From positions 1 through 49,541 of the forward strand of contig QZIX01000014.1 in assembly GCA_003599635.1 (NCBI GenBank): 49,541 nucleotides of DNA, written 5' to 3'. The stretch comes from Candidatus Parcubacteria bacterium. Its GTDB lineage: Bacteria; Patescibacteriota; Patescibacteriia; Buchananbacterales; SURF-54. The first letter of the stretch is position 1, and each line of letters begins with the position of its first letter. This document shows, piece after piece, positions 1-8,846 of this stretch. Both the position numbers and the translations under genes were made by a program. The notes under the pieces are model-generated. The model did no database searches. It worked only from the letters and a program-made list of their open reading frames with translations, and was not told where the DNA came from.

Positions 1-2777
1 TTAAACTTCTTACCCGACCCGCAGGGACAAGGGTCGTTTCTGCCGACTTTCTGGCCATTATAATAAGTCTGCTGATTTTGTTTTAAATCCACCTGCCGTT
101 TGGCAACTTCCTTCTGCATCGCCTGCTGTTCATCAGGCCGCAAACCCGATGCCATGCCTTTTTCCATGGTTTTGGTCGGAGCCGAGAACTGCATTGACGA
201 TTTTTGGAACACGCCCGGCGCCAGTTGCCTGGCAATGCCTATTTTAAATATGGAGTAAACGACCTGTTTTTGTATCAGGTTCATAAGCTCGGTAAAAAGG
301 CGGAATGCTTCTTTTTTGTATTCAATTAAAGGGTCTCTCTGGCCGTAACCGCGCAAACCGATTCCCGTCCGTAAATTATCTATTGCATCCAAATGCCCCA
401 CCCAAAGATTGTCTATAGATCGCAAATACAGCTGCTTTTCAATCTTCCGCATCACGTTTGTCTTAATGTCGCTGTCAACTGACGACTGTTGGCTTTCGAC
501 TGATAAAATTTCTGACTCCAGCTTTTCATACTGCTGTTTTGCTATGCCTGCTAAATAGTTTATAATCTTAGTCCGGGCTTTAACAGCTTCGGGTTTGTTG
601 TCTTTATCCACCGTCTCATCTTTTATTTCCTCAAGTTTTATCCGCAGATTTTCACCGACCGGAAAAATCGAATGCATCACCTCATATATTTCTTTTAAAT
701 CCCACCGGCTTTCATCGCCTTCAGCCGTGTGAAATGAAACCACGGCTTCGATTTCCGCGTCTATCAATTTTAAAATTTCTTCTTTAACGTTTTCTTTGGA
801 CAAAATCTCTTTCCGTCTTTTATAAATAACCTGGCGGTGCTTGTTGACAACGTCATCGTATTCGACCAGATGTTTTCTGATGTCAAAATTATGGCCTTCA
901 ACTTTTTTTTGGGCGGCTTCAATTGACTTGGAAACCATGCGGTTTTCAATGGGCATATCTTCCGGCACCTTGAGCGTATCCATCATTTTTTTAATCCGCT
1001 CTGAACCGAAAATGCGCATCAATTCATCTTCCAAAGAAAGATAAAACCGTGACAATCCGGGATCGCCTTGCCTGCCCGACCGTCCGCGCAACTGATTGTC
1101 AATGCGCCGCGATTCATGGCGTTCGGTTCCCAAAACATACAAACCGCCTGCCTGCCGCACCCTATCCCCGCCCTCTTTTTCCGGCGGATTGCCGCCTAAA
1201 ATAATATCAACTCCCCTGCCTGCCATGTTCGTCGCCACGGTTACCGCACCCGGCCTGCCTGCCTGGGCAATTATCTGCGCTTCTTTTTCGTGGTGTTTGG
1301 CGTTTAAAACCTGATGTTCAATGCCCTGGCGGGAAAGCAATTCTGAAAGCATTTCATTTTTTTCTATGGCAATTGTGCCTATAAGTACCGGCTGTCCGGC
1401 TTTCTGCCTTTCCTTAACGTCTTTAATCAACGCCTGGTATTTTCCCATTTCGGTTTTGTAGATAAGGTCGTTTTTATCCTGACGGATCATTTCTTTATTT
1501 GTCGGCACCACTACAACTTCCAGATTATAAATTTTGGAAAACTCTTCCGCTTCGGTTGCGGCCGTGCCTGTCATGCCGGAAAGTTTTTTGTATAAACGGA
1601 AATAATTCTGAAAAGTTATTGTCGCGAGAGTCTTTGATTCCCGCTGTACAGTTACGCCTTCTTTGGCCTCAATTGCCTGATGGAGCCCCTCGGAATACCT
1701 TCTGCCGTGCATCAGCCGTCCCGTAAATTCATCTACAATAATCACTTCGCCGTCTTTGACCACATAATCTTTATCGCGCTTGAATAAAGCCTGGGCCTTC
1801 AGGGCTTCTTCGATATGATGAACCATTATAATTCCGCCTTCAGTGTAAATATTTTCCATACCAAGCCACTGTTCCATTTTACCGATGCCGTCTTCGGTCA
1901 AAGTGGCAGCACGCATTTTTTCATCGATATTGTAGTCATCATTAAGCTTCAAGCGATTCACCAACTGAGCAAATTTTGTGTACATATCGGTTGATTCGGT
2001 GTCAGGCGCGGAAATTATCAAAGGCGTTCTGGCCTCGTCAATTAAGATACTGTCAATTTCATCGATAATCGCGTAATTAAGTTCCCGCTGTACCATTTGG
2101 TCAAGCGATTGAACCATATTGTCCCTTAAATAATCAAAACCGTATTCGTTGTTCGTGCCGTAAGTAATGTCGGCAAGATAAGCTTCTTTTCTTTGCACCG
2201 GCCGCAAAAACTCATGGACGATTTTAAACGACCCCTTCGTATCACGTTCTTTATCCAGTTCAGTCTGCTGACTGCTGTATGAAGGATCGTAAAGAAACGA
2301 TGACTCATGCTGGATGCAGCCGACACTTAAACCCAAAGCATTATAAACCTGGCCCATCCAGACAGAATCCCTGGCAGCCAGATAATCGTTTACTGTAATA
2401 ACGTGAACGCCCCTTCCCTGCAAAGTATTAAGATAAACAGCTGTGGTTGAAGCCAGAGTCTTGCCTTCTCCGGTTCTCATTTCCGCAATCTGACCGCGGT
2501 GCAAGGCAATGCCGCCTATTAACTGCACGTCATAATGGCGCTGGCCTAAATTGCGTTTAGCCGCTTCTCTTACCGTGGCAAAAGCTTCGGGCAAGATGTC
2601 ATCAAGCTTTTTGCCGGCTTTTAGTTCTTCTTTGAATTTATTTGTTTGATTTTTCAGATCAGCATCCGAAAGAGATGAAACTGTCTTTTCTAAAGCGTTT
2701 ATCTGCTCTACGACTTGCTGCATTTCACGTATTACGCTTTTATTGGGATCGCCGAAGATTTTGGTTAATATGGACAT
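1..2777 (-). CDS. secA: Preprotein translocase ATPase SecA, 3' end truncated by the window edge
   Basis: Manual translation from ATG at 2777 gives MSILTKIFGDPNKSVIREMQ..., EMRTGEGKT (Walker A), IIDEIDSILIDEARTPLIIS, NMAGRGVDI, and ends in the SEC-C motif GRNDPCPCGSGKKF at the edge. Absent from the ORF track because no stop lies in the window. Confidence 0.98.
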   Translation of the reverse strand, partial: MSILTKIFGDPNKSVIREMQQVVEQINALEKTVSSLSDADLKNQTNKFKEELKAGKKLDDILPEAFATVREAAKRNLGQRHYDVQLIGGIALHRGQIAEMRTGEGKTLASTTAVYLNTLQGRGVHVITVNDYLAARDSVWMGQVYNALGLSVGCIQHESSFLYDPSYSSQQTELDKERDTKGSFKIVHEFLRPVQRKEAYLADITYGTNNEYGFDYLRDNMVQSLDQMVQRELNYAIIDEIDSILIDEARTPLIISAPDTESTDMYTKFAQLVNRLKLNDDYNIDEKMRAATLTEDGIGKMEQWLGMENIYTEGGIIMVHHIEEALKAQALFKRDKDYVVKDGEVIIVDEFTGRLMHGRRYSEGLHQAIEAKEGVTVQRESKTLATITFQNYFRLYKKLSGMTGTAATEAEEFSKIYNLEVVVVPTNKEMIRQDKNDLIYKTEMGKYQALIKDVKERQKAGQPVLIGTIAIEKNEMLSELLSRQGIEHQVLNAKHHEKEAQIIAQAGRPGAVTVATNMAGRGVDIILGGNPPEKEGGDRVRQAGGLYVLGTERHESRRIDNQLRGRSGRQGDPGLSRFYLSLEDELMRIFGSERIKKMMDTLKVPEDMPIENRMVSKSIEAAQKKVEGHNFDIRKHLVEYDDVVNKHRQVIYKRRKEILSKENVKEEILKLIDAEIEAVVSFHTAEGDESRWDLKEIYEVMHSIFPVGENLRIKLEEIKDETVDKDNKPEAVKARTKIINYLAGIAKQQYEKLESEILSVESQQSSVDSDIKTNVMRKIEKQLYLRSIDNLWVGHLDAIDNLRTGIGLRGYGQRDPLIEYKKEAFRLFTELMNLIQKQVVYSIFKIGIARQLAPGVFQKSSMQFSAPTKTMEKGMASGLRPDEQQAMQKEVAKRQVDLKQNQQTYYNGQKVGRNDPCPCGSGKKF

Positions 2778-2798
2778 GATTTTTAAGTTTTTATTTGT

Positions 2799-2854
2799 CA
2801 GTTATCAGTTAGCAGCCACTGGTAACTAGCTGCTAGACACTAGAAACTAAATTA
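2799..2854. repeat. Degenerate 7-nt periodic array in the secA leader
   Basis: cagttat cagttag cagccac tggtaac tagctgc tagacac tagaaac taaatta; internal inverted pair tagcagc (2810-2816) / gctgcta (2829-2835). Confidence 0.6.
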
Positions 2855-2868
2855 TAAATGCAGATTTT

Positions 2869-2897
2869 ATTATAATAAAAAACAAGCCTAAATGCAA
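2869..2897 (-). promoter_or_regulatory. Putative sigma70 promoter for secA
   Basis: Minus strand TTGCAT-N17-TATAAT, about 90 nt upstream of the secA ATG. Confidence 0.6.
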
Positions 2898-2995
2898 GGC
2901 TGGTTAATTTAAAATATTATCTTCTTTTTATTTTTTGAAGCAATGTATGGATTACGAATTACCAATCAACGTAAATATACTAATCGTGTATCTTT

Positions 2996-3234
2996 GTCAT
3001 CTCGACCGAAGTGGAGAGATCTAGTTCAAACAAAGCATTTTTTTGACGAGATATTCCATTCGCTTCGCTCCAACCCCGAAGTAACAACATTTCGTCATCC
3101 TGAACGAAGTGAAGGATCTTATAATAGTTAATGAATAGATTCTTCACTTAGCGAAAGCAGGCGGAGAAAAAGGAAGCGTGCCATCTAGAACGTCCGAAGC
3201 CTCACCCCAACCCTCTCCGATTTCGGAAAGGGAG
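2996..3234. repeat. Cluster of REP-like short palindromic element remnants
   Basis: gtcatctcgaccgaagtggagagatct (2996-3022) and cgtcatcctgaacgaagtgaaggatct (3093-3119) are related copies, each followed by a partial inverted mate (3048-3070, 3137-3148). A second family, cctcaccccaaccctctccgatttcggaaagggag, lies at 3200-3234. Confidence 0.65.
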
Positions 3235-3243
3235 CAGAAAAAA

Positions 3244-3657
3244 TTATTTCTTCTTCAAGATATTTTGCAGAAATTTTTTTTCCCCCGCCATTTTCAATCT
3301 CTTCTCGATCTCGCACATCTCCTGCTTGTTTCTTTCGTAAATAAATTCCGATTTTTTTAAATATACTACTTCGATTTTTTTCTTCAGGAGTTTTTTTAAA
3401 GCCGGAAAACTAATTAAAGGTGTGCGGATTTTTTTCGCCTTTAAATGAATCAATAATACCGCCGCCGGATTGCCGATGATTTTGTCGTAGACGACGTATT
3501 TCGCTAATGGCTTATTGCTTATGGCAAATCTGGATAAAGTCTTTATCCCTGCGGCGCGGCTTCGCAGCTCTATTTTTCCATTCCTAACCAGCCAAAAAGT
3601 GTCAGTGCTTTGCCGGAATTTTTGTAGTAACGCCCGACAATCACTTTTGGCTGTCAT
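3244..3657 (-). CDS. DUF1893 (TM1506-like) protein
   Basis: Motif YVVYDKIIGNPAAVLL preceded by GIKTL, C-terminal MCEIE, 137 aa; matches the family pattern as recalled. Confidence 0.75.
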   Translation of the reverse strand: MTAKSDCRALLQKFRQSTDTFWLVRNGKIELRSRAAGIKTLSRFAISNKPLAKYVVYDKIIGNPAAVLLIHLKAKKIRTPLISFPALKKLLKKKIEVVYLKKSEFIYERNKQEMCEIEKRLKMAGEKKFLQNILKKK

Positions 3658-4519
3658 TGGCGTTTACTATAAGATGATATGCCAGTTTTGCCGCCGTGAA
3701 TTCAGATTGAACTGAACCAGGGATCGGACAAAGTTCAACGACATCACAGCCGATTATTCTTTTTTTCTTTGAAACGGCTTTAATAATATCTATAACTTGC
3801 TGCCACAGCAGACCGCCCGGTTCCGGAGTTCCTACGGCAGGTAGAATTGACGGATCAAACGCGTCTAAATCAAAACTTATATAAACTTTCTCAGTCAGAG
3901 AATCTAATACTTCATTGGCGGATGGCACTTCCGGCATAAGGTAGGATTTGATTTTTTTTCTTTTCACAAATTCCTTAACCTCTGAATTTAAGTTGCGGAT
4001 GCCTATTTGTACAAAAGGTATTTTTAAATCATAAACCCTGCGCATAACGCTGCCGTGACTGTATTTCGTATTTTCAAGCTCGTCAATCAGGTCAGTGTGG
4101 GCATCAAAATGCAAAATAGAAAAATTTTTATGCTTTTTCCTTAAAGCTCTGACTACCCCCAGGGTAATGGAATGTTCACCCCCTAAAACAAGAGGTATTT
4201 TATTATATTTTATAATTTCGTTGTAAACAGCCTCTTCAATGCTTTCAATTGCCTCTCTGGCTGAATTTTTGTTAATTTCTATTTCATCCAGAGTAAAAAT
4301 TTCAGTGTCTTTTATTCCAAGCAGATTTCCTTTACCTTTCGGATCAAAAAGTTCATCCAGAAATCTTGAGGCATAAATAATAGATTTAGGACCCATTTTG
4401 CTTCCGGAAATAAATGACGCAGTGCTGTCATAAGGTACCGGTAAAACAACAACTCTGGCCTTTTTAAAATCTTGCTTCTCTATGCCCCCGAAATTGTAAG
4501 GTATGAAATGGTATTTCAT
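3641..4519 (-). CDS. speB: Agmatinase (ureohydrolase family)
   Basis: PYDSTASF..GSKMGP, GGEHSIT, DAHTD, SFDLDAFDPS..PAVGTPEPGG metal-binding motifs. Confidence 0.9.
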   Translation of the reverse strand: MKYHFIPYNFGGIEKQDFKKARVVVLPVPYDSTASFISGSKMGPKSIIYASRFLDELFDPKGKGNLLGIKDTEIFTLDEIEINKNSAREAIESIEEAVYNEIIKYNKIPLVLGGEHSITLGVVRALRKKHKNFSILHFDAHTDLIDELENTKYSHGSVMRRVYDLKIPFVQIGIRNLNSEVKEFVKRKKIKSYLMPEVPSANEVLDSLTEKVYISFDLDAFDPSILPAVGTPEPGGLLWQQVIDIIKAVSKKKRIIGCDVVELCPIPGSVQSEFTAAKLAYHLIVNANDSQK

Positions 4520-5598
4520 AATTTAATATTATTTTTTTCCATCCGTTCAAACAGGGCTTTCATTAAAACCGGAAAACCGATTGTGGCGTCGGCAAAAACT
4601 TCAGCCATTTTTCCTCCCTGCGACCTGGGAACGAATTTGCCCCAGGAAACGCCTTCGGAATAGGTGCAGCCCGAAAGACCGCCCCAGTGAACCGGTTCAG
4701 GACAGATGCGAACGCCGTACCAGAACGGTTTGTAATATTCGTCTTTCGCGTCCATGGCTTCATACTTTTTTTCATCGCCGCCGGCCAGAATCCTGTATTT
4801 GTAAATATCCAGAAACGGCGCTACCTGCTGCGCCCAGTTTCTCGGAACTCCCCCGCCTAAAGTAAGAATGCCGGTTTTTTCGGCTTTGGTTACCATATCC
4901 GAATATTTTTCCAGATCCAAAAAAGGATTAAACTGCAATTCCCGTCTCCCCGCCATTTTTTGTTTTCTGTTATACAAAGCGAAATCCAGCCCCATTTCGC
5001 AATCGGTAAAAGCCGGAATAAATATGGGGACATTGTTTTTGTAAGCAGCTGAAAAAATGCTTTTGCCTTTCACGTTTTCGTAAAGATATTTTCCAAGTTC
5101 TCTTACCAGCACATGGCTGCACAAGGTTTTTTCGGTATCCTGCGCTTCTAACACTTTGGTTACGATTTTATCGGCCTCGTCGAAATTGCTTTCGCTTTCC
5201 AAAGTATCGTAAACCCTGTCAAGACGCAGTTCCCGCAGTTTTTCATCAGAAATATTTCCGGGATTTTTAAAATGTGTCAGGCCGGCGCTTTCAATAAAAC
5301 CGTGAGAAATAATGGCGCCGGTTGAAACCACGGCATCAATTATTCGTTTTTCTATCATTTGCGTAATAATAAGACCCATTTTTGCCATAGTCATGGCGCC
5401 GGAAAGCGTTAAAACTTTCAGACAATTTTTGTCATTTACCATGTCCCATAAAACTTCCAAAGCTTCTCCCAACGCCCTGCCGGAAAAAGCGGTTTTGCCC
5501 ATGGCGGTTACAAGTTCGTCTGTGTCTTCTGCCTTTTCAATATCGATAGATTTCATCGGCTCAAGTTTTTTATAGATTTTTTGGTGTTCTTCTTTCAT
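4516..5598 (-). CDS. Deoxyhypusine synthase-like protein (possible homospermidine synthase)
   Basis: LTLSGAMTMA, VSTGAIISHG, IPAFTDCEMG, LGGGVPRNW, GGLSGCTYSEGVSWGK with the SWGK lysine retained. Start moved to ATG 5598 (MKEEH), 4 nt after the upstream stop. Confidence 0.9.
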   Translation of the reverse strand: MKEEHQKIYKKLEPMKSIDIEKAEDTDELVTAMGKTAFSGRALGEALEVLWDMVNDKNCLKVLTLSGAMTMAKMGLIITQMIEKRIIDAVVSTGAIISHGFIESAGLTHFKNPGNISDEKLRELRLDRVYDTLESESNFDEADKIVTKVLEAQDTEKTLCSHVLVRELGKYLYENVKGKSIFSAAYKNNVPIFIPAFTDCEMGLDFALYNRKQKMAGRRELQFNPFLDLEKYSDMVTKAEKTGILTLGGGVPRNWAQQVAPFLDIYKYRILAGGDEKKYEAMDAKDEYYKPFWYGVRICPEPVHWGGLSGCTYSEGVSWGKFVPRSQGGKMAEVFADATIGFPVLMKALFERMEKNNIKL

Positions 5599-5602
5599 CG
5601 GT

Positions 5603-6136
5603 TTAATTAAATATCTTACCGGCAAATCTGGCCAATACCGGAACCGATACAAGCTGTAAAATAATTCCCGGCCAGCCGAAAATTACCGCTTCCTTAACAT
5701 AGATCCAGCCGTTAAAGCCTGTCAGGCCATCAATTAAGGGTATAAGAAAAATCCTGCCTGAAATGGCTGTCACTAGCAGGGCAACAACGACTGAAAGACG
5801 GAATTTTTCCCTCAGTATTCCCGCCAAAAGACCGTAAATTAAGGATTCAAGAGTTATTACAGGCAAAACTGCCCAAACCGGCATACCCGAGACGAAGTAG
5901 CTTATCAGGGGCGTCATTAAGCCGACTATCATTCCCGTCTGATAGCCGAAAGTTAAAGCCGCCACTAAAATAAAAATCTGCATCGGTAAAAAAATCCTGC
6001 CGGCGGCTCCGAACTGATGGAAAACATAGGGCAGAAAAACCGATAAAATCGTAAAAAGGCAGACCGCTAACGCCTTTTTTCTGATTGATATTTTATTTTG
6101 CGCATAACCCGTAAAAAAACTTGAACTTAAAATCAT
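5603..6136 (-). CDS. ECF transporter S-component (substrate unknown)
   Basis: About 177 aa, 5-6 hydrophobic helices, FLPMQIFILVAALTFG..G..VG..TP..S...SGMP pattern. Confidence 0.75.
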   Translation of the reverse strand: MILSSSFFTGYAQNKISIRKKALAVCLFTILSVFLPYVFHQFGAAGRIFLPMQIFILVAALTFGYQTGMIVGLMTPLISYFVSGMPVWAVLPVITLESLIYGLLAGILREKFRLSVVVALLVTAISGRIFLIPLIDGLTGFNGWIYVKEAVIFGWPGIILQLVSVPVLARFAGKIFN

Positions 6137-6141
6137 AAATA

Positions 6142-6447
6142 TTATTTATTTAATTGTTTTGACTTGTATTTTACCAATTCGATTTTAAGGTGATCCTTCA
6201 CTTTGTCAATGGCCTTAAAAATATCTTCTTCGGTTTTTTCCACCCGTAAAAGCTTGCCCGGCACATCCAGATTAACCTCTGCCCGGTAAAGCTGACCCTT
6301 TTGATGATGGGCCGTGGTATATTCAACCTCGACGTCTGCCCGGAGAATATTTCCGTAGTACTTAAGCAATAAAAGCATCTTTTTTTCTATATAATCCTTA
6401 AGCTCCGGCGTCAGATCCATTTTTGTTCCCTTTATTTTTATTTGCAT
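6142..6447 (-). CDS. hpf: Ribosome hibernation factor HPF/RaiA (short form)
   Basis: MQIKIKGTKMDLTPELKDYIEKK...AEVNLDVPGK.LR.E....DIFKAID; start moved to ATG 6447. Confidence 0.92.
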   Translation of the reverse strand: MQIKIKGTKMDLTPELKDYIEKKMLLLLKYYGNILRADVEVEYTTAHHQKGQLYRAEVNLDVPGKLLRVEKTEEDIFKAIDKVKDHLKIELVKYKSKQLNK

Positions 6448-6451
6448 ATAT

Positions 6452-7420
6452 TTAAAAACCCAGCTTTTGTATTTCTTCTTCAAGCTGAAGACCCAGTTTG
6501 TTTCTGACTTTCTCCTTTATGATACTGACAAGCATTATAACATCAGAACTGGTTGCTTTGCCAGTGTTGATAATAAAATTACAGTGCTTTTCCGATACCT
6601 GGGCACCGCCTATATTTTTTCCTTTAAAACCAAGCGCATCAATTACGTATCCCACCGGTAATTTCCCGAATTTAGTCAGTTCCTCGAATTCGCCGCGGCT
6701 TAAATCCAGCCCTTTTAGGACTTTTTCTTTGTCAATACCGGCTAAAAGAACATTTTTAAAAATACATCCGGCGGACGGCTCTGCTGGCAGATTTTTGCAG
6801 CGAATCATGGTGGTATCATAAACAATTTTTTGCATTTCCTCTTTAGCGCCAGGTTTTAATTTTAAAACTGCCGAAAGAATTATTGCCCCGTTTTTTTTAA
6901 AGACGCTGTCGCGATAACTGAAACGGCAGTCAGCGGCTTTTAATCTTTCTATTTTCCCGTTTATCAGACATTCAACTTCACTGACCGCTGAACCCACGCT
7001 TTTACCGAAAGCCCCTGAATTTCCGAATATGGCCCCGCCGACAGTACCGTAAATGCCGACAAGTTTTTCCAAACCCCCAAGCCCGGACCTTGCCGTTTCG
7101 TTAACCAGTCGGCAAAAATTATAGCCGGCGTCGACAATAACATTATCGGCTTTAATTTCCATTTTTTTTGAGCCGACTTTTATTATCAGCCCGTTGTAAC
7201 CCTGGTCGGATACCAAAAGATTGCTGCCGCCGCCCAAAATAAAATAATCTAATTCCAGATCCTTCGCCGTCTTTATAAATTTAATCAGCTCGTCATTACT
7301 TTCGGCGGTAACAAAAAATTTGGCCGGACCGCCGATTTTAAAAGTCGTCTGTTCCGAAAGCATCACATTTTCCAGCAGCTTATCGCCGAATTTTTCCTTT
7401 AAAACGATTTTTTTTGCCAT
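6452..7420 (-). CDS. murB: UDP-N-acetylenolpyruvoylglucosamine reductase
   Basis: TTFKIGGPA, LGGGSNLLVSD, GIYGTVGGA, PSAGCIFKN, VSEKHCNFIIN, LEEEI. Confidence 0.96.
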   Translation of the reverse strand: MAKKIVLKEKFGDKLLENVMLSEQTTFKIGGPAKFFVTAESNDELIKFIKTAKDLELDYFILGGGSNLLVSDQGYNGLIIKVGSKKMEIKADNVIVDAGYNFCRLVNETARSGLGGLEKLVGIYGTVGGAIFGNSGAFGKSVGSAVSEVECLINGKIERLKAADCRFSYRDSVFKKNGAIILSAVLKLKPGAKEEMQKIVYDTTMIRCKNLPAEPSAGCIFKNVLLAGIDKEKVLKGLDLSRGEFEELTKFGKLPVGYVIDALGFKGKNIGGAQVSEKHCNFIINTGKATSSDVIMLVSIIKEKVRNKLGLQLEEEIQKLGF

Positions 7421-7439
7421 CCAATTTCGTTAATTACGT

Positions 7440-7474
7440 TTGTAAATTGTAAATTGTTAATAGTCAATTGTCAA
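7440..7474. repeat. 7-nt tandem repeat at the murC/murB junction
   Basis: ttgtaaa ttgtaaa ttgttaa tagtcaa ttgtcaa; overlaps the murC stop codon. Confidence 0.6.
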
Positions 7475-8846
7475 TAAGCTTGTAGACGTCTCCCGCTCCC
7501 ATAACCACCACGACATCATTTTTTTTCACATTTTTATCAAGAAATTTTTTTGTTGATTTTAAACTTCCTGTATAACGCGCATCCGGATGGCTTGTCCCGG
7601 TTTTTTTGCATAAAATTTCCGAGCTGCAGCTTTTTTTCTTTTCACGGGCCGAGGCGAAAATGTCGGTAAAAACAATCTGATCGCATTTGCCGAAGCAGCC
7701 GGAAAAATTTTCTAAAAGCGCCCTGGTCCTGGAATAGGTATGCGGCTGAAAAACGCAACGGACATATTTTTTTGGAAATTTCTGCCTCACCGCCTCAAGT
7801 GTCGTTGAAATTTCCGTCGGATGGTGGCCGTAATCGTCTATATAAGTGACGTTTTTTATCCTGCTGATATTAAATCTTCTTTTTGTTCCCTTAAAATTAA
7901 ACAATGCCTGTCTTATCTTTTCCTTTGAAACACCTTCACCAGAGGCAACAGCAGCACAGACGCAAGCATTCAAGACATTGTGGCTGCCTAAAAGCCTGAT
8001 TTTGAATTCACCGAAAAATTTTTCCCTTTTTTTTATCTTAAACAAAGTATACCCGGGAAAAAATCGCACATCATAAGGTTGCCACAAAGCTTTGCTGTTA
8101 AAGCCATAAGTGATTATATTTTTTTTACCTGAAATTATTTTGTTTATTGCCGGCCAGTCGCTGCAGACAAAAATTTTGCCCTTATTACTTATAGTTTTGT
8201 CAATCAAATCCGTAAAAACTTTTTGCATCTGTACCAAGTTTTTATAAATATCGACATGTTCCCATTCCAGGCTGGTAATAACCGTGATTTTGGGCCGCAG
8301 ATCAAGAAACTTCGGCCGGCTATTGCTTATACTTTTGGCATATTCATCGCCTTCGACAATAAAATGCCTGCCGCTGCCCCAATGTCCGTTTCCTTTCAGT
8401 CCGTAAGCTTTCGAGCTGCCGAAAAGATAAGCCGGATCTTTTTTATCCCGGCTGAAAATATATGACAGCCAGGCGGTTGTTGTGGTTTTGCCGTGCACCC
8501 CGGTTACGGCAATGGTTTTTTTCTGTCTGCTTATCCAGCCGCGCACATCGGATTCGGAAAATGACGGGATTTTATTTCTGACAGCATAGGCAAGCTCGCT
8601 GTTTTTCACCCATGATGCCCCGAAAACAACAGCGTCAGGTTTGAAAATTTTTAAATTTTCTGCGTCGAATTTTTTAAAAATTCTTATTTTGTTTTCCAGC
8701 AACACCTTGTCAGTCAGGAATTTATCGGGCACGTCAGAGCCGGAAACTTCAAAGCCAAGCTGTTTTAAAATCAAAGCAAGCCCCGACACAGCAACTCCTT
8801 TTATGCCGATAAAATAAATTTTTTTAAACTTTTTAAAACCGGTCAT
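7464..8846 (-). CDS. murC: UDP-N-acetylmuramate--L-alanine ligase
   Basis: GIKGVAVSGLA, VTGVHGKTTTT, EGDEY, EWEHVD, G.KRRF, DDYGHHPTEI, FQPHTYSRT, VMGAGDV. Confidence 0.95.
   Translation of the reverse strand: MTGFKKFKKIYFIGIKGVAVSGLALILKQLGFEVSGSDVPDKFLTDKVLLENKIRIFKKFDAENLKIFKPDAVVFGASWVKNSELAYAVRNKIPSFSESDVRGWISRQKKTIAVTGVHGKTTTTAWLSYIFSRDKKDPAYLFGSSKAYGLKGNGHWGSGRHFIVEGDEYAKSISNSRPKFLDLRPKITVITSLEWEHVDIYKNLVQMQKVFTDLIDKTISNKGKIFVCSDWPAINKIISGKKNIITYGFNSKALWQPYDVRFFPGYTLFKIKKREKFFGEFKIRLLGSHNVLNACVCAAVASGEGVSKEKIRQALFNFKGTKRRFNISRIKNVTYIDDYGHHPTEISTTLEAVRQKFPKKYVRCVFQPHTYSRTRALLENFSGCFGKCDQIVFTDIFASAREKKKSCSSEILCKKTGTSHPDARYTGSLKSTKKFLDKNVKKNDVVVVMGAGDVYKLIDN

Follow-up and report, generated by a model that had tools for sequence, protein, structure and literature searches.

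We consider it likely that the four-gene cassette at positions 3244-6136 of this Candidatus Parcubacteria contig comprises two separable modules, both lodged in a single variable interval from hpf to secA. The first is a SpeY-like DHS-family enzyme with an agmatinase-family ureohydrolase; the second is a small membrane protein of the S-component fold ('5TM') with a DUF1893 protein, and would be accessory to the first. The homospermidine pathway to which the first module appears to belong is already known. Its recurrent tie to the 5TM-DUF1893 pair is new, and gives a modest lead only to the function of that pair.

The window, meaning the whole stretch of DNA analysed, covers positions 1-49,541 of contig QZIX01000014.1 (assembly GCA_003599635.1; host genome 79.7% complete). 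The initial annotation had named the four genes and placed all of them on the minus strand, which family profile matches confirmed. The features that bear on the argument are as follows.

6452-7420, minus strand: murB, at the end of the dcw genes (TIGR00179, 206.7 against a cut-off of 144.5)
6142-6483, minus strand: hpf, ribosome hibernation factor, likely ATG at 6447 (TIGR00741, 70.8 bits against 40.9; PF02482 match)
6182-6209, minus strand: sigma-70-like promoter candidate, TTGACA-16 nt-TAAAAT, within the hpf 3' end
5603-6136, minus strand: 5TM, S-component-fold membrane protein of 177 aa with six predicted helices (PF12822 ECF_trnsprt, 33.6 against a cut-off of 30.7 bits; PF07694 5TMR-LYT, 37 against 24.6)
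4516-5652, minus strand: SpeY-like DHS-family enzyme, predicted diagmatine (G44G) synthase (PF01916, 270.8 bits)
3641-4519, minus strand: agmatinase-family ureohydrolase, predicted diagmatine ureohydrolase (DUH) (TIGR01230, 230.8 against 174.3)
3244-3657, minus strand: DUF1893/TM1506-family protein, 137 aa (PF08973, 65.8 bits against 27)
2885-2901, minus strand: terminator-like hairpin with a T-run, in the 466-nt spacer from DUF1893 to secA
3-2777, minus strand: secA, by translation, a conserved gene that closes the variable interval downstream; relatives have a secA of 53-61% identity after the cluster
Contig C5, 165-749: PdaD-type pyruvoyl arginine decarboxylase (ADC) (PF01862, 217.5 bits)

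The cassette is tightly packed behind the mraY to murB-hpf genes. All genes from 14950 to 3244 run in one direction (an unknown gene, mraY, a PgeF-like gene, murD, ftsW, a second unknown, murG, murC, murB and hpf, then the cassette), and neighbouring genes overlap or are separated by no more than 5 nt, with the sole exception of a 43-nt gap between murC and murB, as had been described. The placement is conserved: in CPR relatives murG-murC-murB and hpf, here the final gene upstream of the cassette, also precede the cluster, and DUF1893 abuts or overlaps secA where the window has its spacer. A search from murB to the cassette found no convincing terminator, and the four-gene unit is probably transcribed together with the dcw-hpf genes. 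To that extent the claim of an uninterrupted operon stood, and the accompanying check for a separate promoter returned a candidate. The site at 6209-6182 matches the sigma-70 consensus at 11 of 12 positions and lies 46 nt ahead of the ATG that opens the cassette; in 13 kb there are two such matches only, the second just before murB. Because this site is present inside the hpf 3' end, the cassette is possibly also driven by an internal promoter of its own. An Rfam scan of 2600-6600 gave nothing credible, so that a riboswitch or leader appears to be absent from that region.

We examined the DHS homologue by alignment, profile scores and phylogeny. The catalytic Lys in its motif EGVSWGKF aligns with the Lys of the archaeal DHS structures 8put and 7cmc, which bears out the earlier observation of an intact SWGK site. 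The longest version of the open reading frame starts with a TTG at 5652, and translation probably begins at the ATG at 5598, 4 nt past the 5TM stop codon. The protein fell under every NCBIfam SpeY/DHS equivalog cut-off, scoring 219.1 bits on NF002699, the curated G44G-synthase equivalog (cut-off 500), and 201.6 bits on TIGR00321 for canonical DHS (cut-off 304.25); its best NCBIfam model was NF002006, named deoxyhypusine synthase (275 bits). A canonical SpeY from the same CPR order, ~30% identical to it, scored 576.6 on NF002699. In the tree the SpeY-like clade stood apart from canonical SpeY with 100% SH-aLRT, and the clade has a ~30-residue insertion ahead of the catalytic loop. It is common to DPANN archaea, CPR and scattered bacteria, the nearest relatives of the window protein being DPANN archaeal proteins of up to 60% identity; DHS-family genes occur in ~9% of the genomes of this CPR class. 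In Micrarchaeota the clade gene and a canonical DHS form a tandem, the latter scoring 314-319 on TIGR00321, which argues that in DPANN archaea the clade is a paralogue with a job other than that of DHS. Features of the SpeY functional class are nonetheless present, namely the SWGK Lys and, in the genome, both ADC and agmatinase partners. Because of the low NF002699 score and the distance from canonical SpeY, we infer the product by analogy: the enzyme would join two agmatines to give N1,N9-bis(guanidino)homospermidine (G44G).

The ureohydrolase gene begins within a 4-nt overlap that takes in the SpeY-like stop codon. The Mn-ligand motifs of its product (GGEHS, DAHTD, DLDAFD and VELCP) are intact and readable in an alignment to 3lhl, in line with membership of the agmatinase family. 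Its counterparts in relatives, encoded by the agmatinase gene after SpeY-like, are 42-59% identical to it. By the same analogy it would act on G44G. We propose a route in which the C5 pyruvoyl ADC converts arginine to agmatine, the NAD-dependent SpeY-like enzyme condenses two agmatines to G44G through its active-site Lys, and the Mn ureohydrolase releases homospermidine by taking off two ureas. Because the DHS homologue belongs to a distinct clade, this chemistry is modelled on that of the characterised SpeY/DUH enzymes. Homospermidine was also the product predicted at the outset from the DHS-like and agmatinase homologues, and that part of the prediction fits the SpeY/DUH pathway; the agmatine import attached to it did not survive, as set out below.

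The second module was approached through the fold of 5TM. An AF2 model (pLDDT 87, pTM 0.83) compared with PDB folds gave ECF S-components as all of its top 17 matches, with TM-scores of 0.71 and 0.74 to TmRibU and of 0.42-0.64 to ThiT, BioY, FolT and PanT. The ECF modules that the initial annotation had proposed to look for were not there: EcfT (CbiQ, PF02361) had no match in the host genome or in four others with the same membrane protein, four of these five genomes being at least 98% complete, whereas a control search detected it in 11 of the 14 genomes known to have it. On the strength of this result we rejected a canonical ECF transporter.

The DUF1893 gene overlaps the ureohydrolase gene by 17 nt. 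Its product matches PDB 1vk9 (TM1506) with an E of 3e-7, and D58 aligns with D56 of TM1506, an Asp found to be ADP-ribosylated (PMC3239186). Residues S33, D58, K59, G62, A66, C115 and E118 are invariant in 12 DUF1893 homologues. A word-indexed protein search with the window protein as sole query matched only itself; an alignment of the 12 homologues used as query found further members. The pairing of DUF1893 with 5TM genes had been noted by Iyer et al. 2011 (PMC3239186), and we find the pair to be widespread in bacteria and archaea. 5TM lies immediately upstream of DUF1893 in CPR, a Woesearchaeote and a common bacterium, the two are adjacent in nearly all loci examined, and in one genome they overlap by ATGA. 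In the window the two polyamine genes stand between 5TM and DUF1893, yet all four form one tight unit whose members overlap or stand 4 nt apart. We suggest that 5TM is a membrane ligand-binding subunit and DUF1893 a cytoplasmic partner that probably binds NAD or ADP-ribose, working without an ECF ATPase, and that together they might take up and trap a small molecule, or sense one. In this lineage the pair may serve the polyamine pathway as an accessory and would not be an obligatory step of it.

In this CPR class both modules occupy the single variable interval between hpf and secA. A neighbourhood survey found the four-gene linkage in other CPR genomes, as the initial annotation would predict: 5TM and DUF1893 were present within 4 kb and on the same strand in 11 of the 14 informative CPR genomes that carry the SpeY-like clade. 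In an unbiased sample of the class (n=401), five genomes had both SpeY-like and DUF1893, two SpeY only, six DUF1893 only and 388 neither (Fisher p = 1.1e-7, in a test that ignores phylogeny). A functional link between the modules is plausible, yet unproven because each also occurs without the other. Much of the association could stem from inheritance of a common position, since the modules occur apart and in several genomes the pair alone is found directly upstream of secA.

Taken to its conclusion, the latter argument holds that 5TM and DUF1893 are unconnected with polyamines and that two unrelated modules co-inherited in the hpf-secA slot were lost independently, which we regard as a real but minor possibility. 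It accounts for five genomes in which secA is immediately preceded by 5TM-DUF1893 and the site has neither a SpeY-like nor a DUH gene, and for two in which the pair is missing and the order is ADC-SpeY-DUH-secA in one and SpeD-like-SpeY-secA in the other. It is also consistent with three pair-bearing CPR genomes of a phylum sample that lack any DHS-family gene (six more in the class sample lack the window-clade SpeY-like gene, making nine CPR genomes in all) and with the unrelated contexts of the pair elsewhere, which include AKR-Fe-S, NadA/FmdE/thioredoxin, NUDIX and DUF362 genes. These same observations temper the functional lead claimed for DUF1893, which is indeed linked to polyamine genes in CPR but belongs to a pair that exists independently of them. 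Several features are less easily reconciled with chance neighbourhood. The window interleaves both modules in one overlapping unit; the pair also adjoins SpeY-like in one archaeon, there in divergent orientation; and the association is specific to the SpeY-like clade, no DUF1893 being found in the ~25 genomes of the class with a canonical-type SpeY. FmdE-like and GARS-like genes recur beside SpeY-like and beside DUF1893 alike, and the ADC type was swapped three times while the remainder of the cluster was retained.

A stronger version of the functional link would make 5TM and DUF1893 a self-sufficient, ECF-ATPase-free uptake or sensing device coupled to the agmatine-using DHS clade of DPANN and CPR, with, for example, a pyridine-nucleotide-related or guanidino ligand controlling homospermidine synthesis, and would equate the Micrarchaeota clade with the 'agmatine-dependent archaeal DHS'. 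We hold this to be speculative and rather unlikely.

We examined the source of agmatine because it bears on the model first put forward, in which agmatine or a related amine that the cell cannot make enters through the orphan S-component and is turned into homospermidine by the cassette. The window does lack an ADC, as had been stated (tblastn with the AR-fold ADC of relatives), and the same query had no match in the genome, nor did SpeD-like ADC. PdaD is the sole ADC type present, encoded on contig C5 and unlinked to the cassette. Alignment with the M. jannaschii enzyme (1n2m, the S53A form) places its sequence NLVTVSSIYPP at the cleavage site, with the Ser-Ser pair kept. The protein is 69% identical to a PdaD whose gene, on a Staskawiczbacteria contig, immediately precedes SpeY-like. 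Agmatine import is therefore unnecessary. In CPR relatives, ADCs of three folds (AR-fold PLP, PdaD and SpeD-like) are found immediately upstream of SpeY-like-DUH, and among the best 80 SpeY-like loci, which include DPANN archaea and Desulfonatronovibrio, an ADC-type gene lies within 10 kb in 16 and an agmatinase in 22. Most relatives carry the ADC in one cluster with the membrane protein and DUF1893, so the membrane protein is no substitute for it, and we rejected both proteins as ADC replacements. What speaks for import, apart from the window's own lack of an ADC, is that the membrane protein sits in the relatives' ADC slot and that one genome (G587) has lost SpeY-DUH but still carries ADC-5TM-DUF1893, a hint that the role of the pair is connected with arginine or agmatine. 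Set against the intact PdaD, the shared clusters, the missing energising module, the occurrence of the 5TM family in genomes without a DHS-family gene and a 5TM alignment with no invariant acidic residue pointing to a polyamine or guanidinium site, these points leave the import model improbable.

Two other readings concern the product of the DHS homologue. The SpeY-like clade could use agmatine to make an asymmetric guanidino-polyamine, or a product further processed by an ATP-grasp enzyme, a methyltransferase or DUF1893. The clear separation of the clade from canonical SpeY and its insertion would suit such a change, as would the GARS-like ATP-grasp and methyltransferase genes inserted in Moranbacteria-type clusters and the GARS-like gene near SpeY-like in Micrarchaeota. 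The chance that this applies here seems slim, given that the window has no ATP-grasp or methyltransferase gene, that the agmatinase partner is conserved, and that the published G44G-making SpeY enzymes were chosen as phylogenetically diverse (PMC13625781).

The second of these readings is protein modification, in which the DHS homologue would modify a protein such as EF-P and the agmatinase homologue would complete the reaction. An agmatine-based route of this kind has reportedly been proposed for aIF5A in Haloferax. The close DPANN archaeal relatives and the name of the best NCBIfam model point that way, but the idea is very improbable in view of the missed DHS cut-offs, the tandem canonical DHS in DPANN archaea, the ADC-SpeY-agmatinase clustering, which fits a small-molecule pathway, and the production of G44G by every bacterial SpeY tested (PMC13625781).

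On our preferred reading of two modules, some ultra-small, biosynthetically poor CPR keep a complete predicted route from arginine to homospermidine at a fixed site behind cell-wall genes, which suggests that polyamine supply is not always outsourced. The separate DHS-family clade of DPANN, CPR and scattered bacteria also bears on the question of agmatine-dependent archaeal DHS paralogues (PMC13625781).

The closest known system is the SpeY/DUH homospermidine pathway of Thermus thermophilus, Anabaena, Caldilinea aerophila, Winogradskyella algicola and others (Li et al., J Biol Chem 2026, PMC13625781), in which SpeY from diverse bacteria converts agmatine to G44G and SpeY-linked SpeB homologues are G44G-specific ureohydrolases. 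As there, a DHS-family enzyme with the catalytic Lys adjoins an agmatinase-family ureohydrolase, an ADC of varying fold (AR-fold PLP, pyruvoyl PdaD or SpeD-derived) is found in the cluster or genome, and the distribution is patchy, as horizontal transfer would give. The window enzyme differs in belonging to a DPANN-shared clade, with ~30% identity to canonical SpeY and 219 against 500 on NF002699; in CPR, moreover, the S-component-like gene and DUF1893 usually follow, a feature unmentioned in PMC13625781. 5TM shares its six-helix fold and an above-cut-off PF12822 score with ECF S-components (RibU, ThiT, BioY, FolT) and with the solitary BtuM (PMC6072759), but EcfT is absent from the five genomes and its constant partner is the soluble DUF1893 in place of an ATPase module. 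The 5TMR-LYT sensor domains (Commun Biol 2024, PMC11109136) offer a precedent for the S-component fold in a receptor role; like them, 5TM exceeds the PF07694 cut-off and is an S-fold membrane domain without an ECF module. They carry fused cytoplasmic signalling domains, whereas 5TM has no soluble domain, so that any signalling must run via the separate DUF1893 protein. The TM1506/DUF1893 and '5TM' neighbourhood (Iyer, Zhang, Rogozin and Aravind 2011, PMC3239186; 1vk9) likewise joins a small deaminase-fold protein to a small multi-pass membrane protein, and the Asp corresponding to the ADP-ribosylated residue of TM1506 is invariant in the DUF1893 proteins studied here. The partner enzymes known until now were Fe-S aldo/keto reductases, from Firmicutes and Bacteroidetes, with no earlier report of the family in CPR, DPANN or other archaea, whereas here they are polyamine enzymes in CPR, two of whose genes split the pair in the window. 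The DUF1893/S-component pair thereby gains a second testable enzymatic context besides the Fe-S aldo/keto reductases.

The genome carrying the window is 778 kb in size and 79.7% complete, the window is one entire 49.5-kb contig of it, and the named genomes nearest to it are MAGs of Patescibacteria (CPR). A co-directional minus-strand run extends from 14950 to 3244 in the order unknown 124-aa ORF, mraY, a gene for a PgeF-like Cu-oxidase_4 protein, murD, ftsW, unknown 133-aa ORF, murG, murC, murB and hpf, followed at its 3' end by the four cassette genes:

5603-6136, minus strand: 5TM, a membrane protein of 177 aa (PF12822, 33.6 bits; PF07694, 37 bits)
4516-5652, minus strand: SpeY-like protein of the DHS family (PF01916, 270.8 bits)
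3641-4519, minus strand: DUH, an agmatinase-family enzyme predicted to be a diagmatine ureohydrolase (TIGR01230, 230.8 against a cut-off of 174.3)
3244-3657, minus strand: DUF1893 protein (PF08973, 65.8 bits)

The SpeY-like gene probably starts at the ATG at 5598, 4 nt past the preceding stop codon. Its catalytic Lys (SWGK) aligned with the position seen in solved archaeal DHS structures, and the ureohydrolase has kept its Mn-ligand motifs. Coordinates, family scores and these catalytic features thus bear out the four genes placed here by the initial annotation. The further proposal of a cassette fused to the cell-wall operon is supported by the tight run, in which genes overlap or lie at most 5 nt apart except at murC/murB (43 nt). 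It is qualified by a near-consensus sigma-70-like candidate site 46 nt 5' of the first cassette gene, still within the 3' end of hpf, and by the 466-nt spacer between DUF1893 and secA, which contains a terminator-like hairpin. This spacer holds two minus-strand copies (2996-3013 and 3094-3111) of the hairpin repeat AGATCyyTC-ACTTCGkTC-rrGATGAC, which occurs eight times genome-wide, with six further copies on contigs C3, C11 and C15; both arms of its 5-bp stem vary from copy to copy (ATCTC/GAGAT versus ATCCT/AGGAT).

The AF2 model of 5TM (pLDDT 87) had ECF S-components as its top 17 PDB matches, with a TM-score of 0.71-0.74 against TmRibU. Since no EcfT was found in the window genome or in four other 5TM-carrying genomes (four of the five at least 98% complete), 5TM is predicted to be a solitary S-fold protein; the fold is used for both transport and sensing (PMC11109136). 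A half-size MFS protein of 183-190 aa, six helices' worth, is encoded directly upstream of 5TM at loci L088 (11939-12511) and L134 (8951-9502), and the gene accompanies 5TM in genomes of family f168 with and without polyamine genes. L088 (CAZQLY010000004) is labelled 'uncultured Gammaproteobacteria' and has CPR synteny; the public label looks wrong.

The DUF1893 protein matched the TM1506 structure. Its invariant Asp58 is the counterpart of the Asp ADP-ribosylated in TM1506 (PMC3239186), and Ser33, Lys59, Cys115 and Glu118 are invariant too. The pairing of 5TM with DUF1893 was already noted by Iyer et al. 2011 (PMC3239186). We found 5TM to be the gene just upstream of DUF1893 in other CPR genomes that lack DHS-family genes altogether, in a Woesearchaeote, and in a widespread bacterium in which 5TM is itself preceded by an Fe-S aldo/keto reductase gene; in one relative 5TM and DUF1893 share an ATGA overlap. 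Other contexts of DUF1893 were NadA...FmdE-DUF1893-thioredoxin in archaea, NUDIX-DUF1893 and DUF362. A small FmdE-family gene lies directly upstream of DUF1893 on archaeal contigs L112 (5564-5998) and L113 (5526-5966), which also encode NadA, thioredoxin and DUF2148, and another stands between DUH and 5TM in one of the CPR clusters (L055, 11929-12306).

Among the 80 closest SpeY-like loci, the 5TM-DUF1893 pair lay no more than 4 kb downstream, on the strand of the SpeY-like gene, in every CPR locus with sufficient flanking sequence, and in one archaeon the pair was divergent from the SpeY-like gene. Of 401 genomes sampled without bias from the class, five had both SpeY-like and DUF1893 genes, two had SpeY-like only (one of these two contigs stops inside the 5TM gene), six had DUF1893 only and 388 had neither (Fisher p = 1.1e-7, not corrected for phylogeny). 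DUF1893 was absent from about 25 further genomes carrying canonical-type SpeY. Over all data the pair stood beside a member of the window's SpeY-like clade in 11 of 14 informative CPR genomes, and the four cassette genes are linked in other CPR genomes.

The position of the cluster was constant: murG-murC-murB-[hpf]-[ADC]-SpeY-DUH-[variable genes]-5TM-DUF1893-secA, where ADC is arginine decarboxylase. Each module also occurred alone between murB/hpf and secA, as ADC-SpeY-DUH-secA in genome G571 and hpf-SpeD-like-SpeY-secA in G358, both lacking the pair, and as 5TM-DUF1893-secA without SpeY-like/DUH genes at that site in G648 and others. The cassette's halves therefore form two separable modules that share one variable slot. 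G587, of the same genus as G448 (full cluster), has hpf-ADC-5TM-DUF1893-secA (L135, 4889-10795) with an intact ADC and SpeY-DUH missing, reflecting either a recent deletion of SpeY-DUH or a pair that works with arginine/agmatine. A PurD/GARS-like ATP-grasp gene sits between DUH and 5TM in Moranbacteria-type clusters (L091, L094, L100), accompanied by a methyltransferase in L091 and L100, and recurs near DUF1893 in a Woesearchaeote (L114, 4412-5710) and near SpeY-like genes in Micrarchaeota (L044, L058); the encoded enzyme may couple a carboxylate with an amino group of a polyamine.

A functional tie between the separable modules is plausible because their association is specific to the SpeY-like clade of the window, there is a case in an archaeon, the modules are interleaved in the window, and FmdE-like and GARS-like genes partner both. 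The tie is not obligatory, and part of the association signal is due to shared descent. As a genomic pattern the link to polyamine genes, put forward as a functional lead for DUF1893, is real; as a lead to function it is only a soft one.

The window SpeY-like protein scored under every curated NCBIfam cut-off (NF002006, 275 against 434; NF002699, the G44G [N1,N9-bis(guanidino)homospermidine] synthase model, 219 against 500; TIGR00321, 202 against 304). With one genome per species, its closest relatives were from DPANN archaea (Woesearchaeota, Micrarchaeota, Nanoarchaeia; identity up to 60%); other relatives came from CPR and scattered bacteria. In the tree its clade (81 members) was set apart from canonical SpeY and canonical archaeal DHS with 100% SH-aLRT; canonical SpeY is also present in the window's CPR order (577 bits on NF002699). 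At five loci on Micrarchaeota and related DPANN contigs (L046, L053, L054, L059, L060), a clade member is followed in tandem by a canonical archaeal DHS gene passing TIGR00321 (314-319 bits), which argues that the clade is a paralogue and not the aIF5A-modifying enzyme. These loci bear on the existence of agmatine-dependent DHS paralogues in archaea. An agmatinase homologue lay within 10 kb in 22 of the 80 closest loci and an ADC-type gene in 16, including loci from DPANN and Desulfonatronovibrio. From gene context, rather than family membership, we infer that the clade is SpeY-like in function.

Other DHS-family genes were also seen. One, of archaeal DHS-like type, belongs to a CPR bacterium from the window's order (G422) and lies on the minus strand of L018 at 7421-8386 (PRK01221, 335 bits, slightly below the cut-off of 350), with an agmatinase homologue about 1 kb off. 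Another group in the class (G622:C2:22321-23256, G719:C9:5116-5997, G460:C1:28145-29044) shares 37-42% identity with the window's SpeY-like protein; its unusually long frames (485-526 aa) suggest a possible fusion.

Bacterial SpeY proteins of diverse phylogeny convert two agmatines to G44G, and SpeY-linked SpeB homologues are G44G-specific ureohydrolases yielding homospermidine, as reported in a 2026 study; the pathway requires an ADC, which unrelated folds can supply (PMC13625781). As first observed, the window holds no ADC. The genome encodes an intact pyruvoyl-dependent one (PdaD) on contig C5 (165-749; PF01862, 217 bits), with a conserved Ser-Ser self-processing site and 69% identity to the PdaD immediately upstream of the equivalent cluster on a Staskawiczbacteria contig. 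Agmatine import is therefore not required, and the suggested import through an orphan S-component is not supported. In relatives the ADC lies within the cluster, its slot occupied by three different folds: AR-fold PLP (G448, G505, G590, G674, L055, G571), PdaD (L069, G520) and SpeD-like (L094, G358). This swapping is the pattern described for SpeY clusters (PMC13625781). We read the core of the cassette as a new variant, at the level of a clade, of the published homospermidine pathway.
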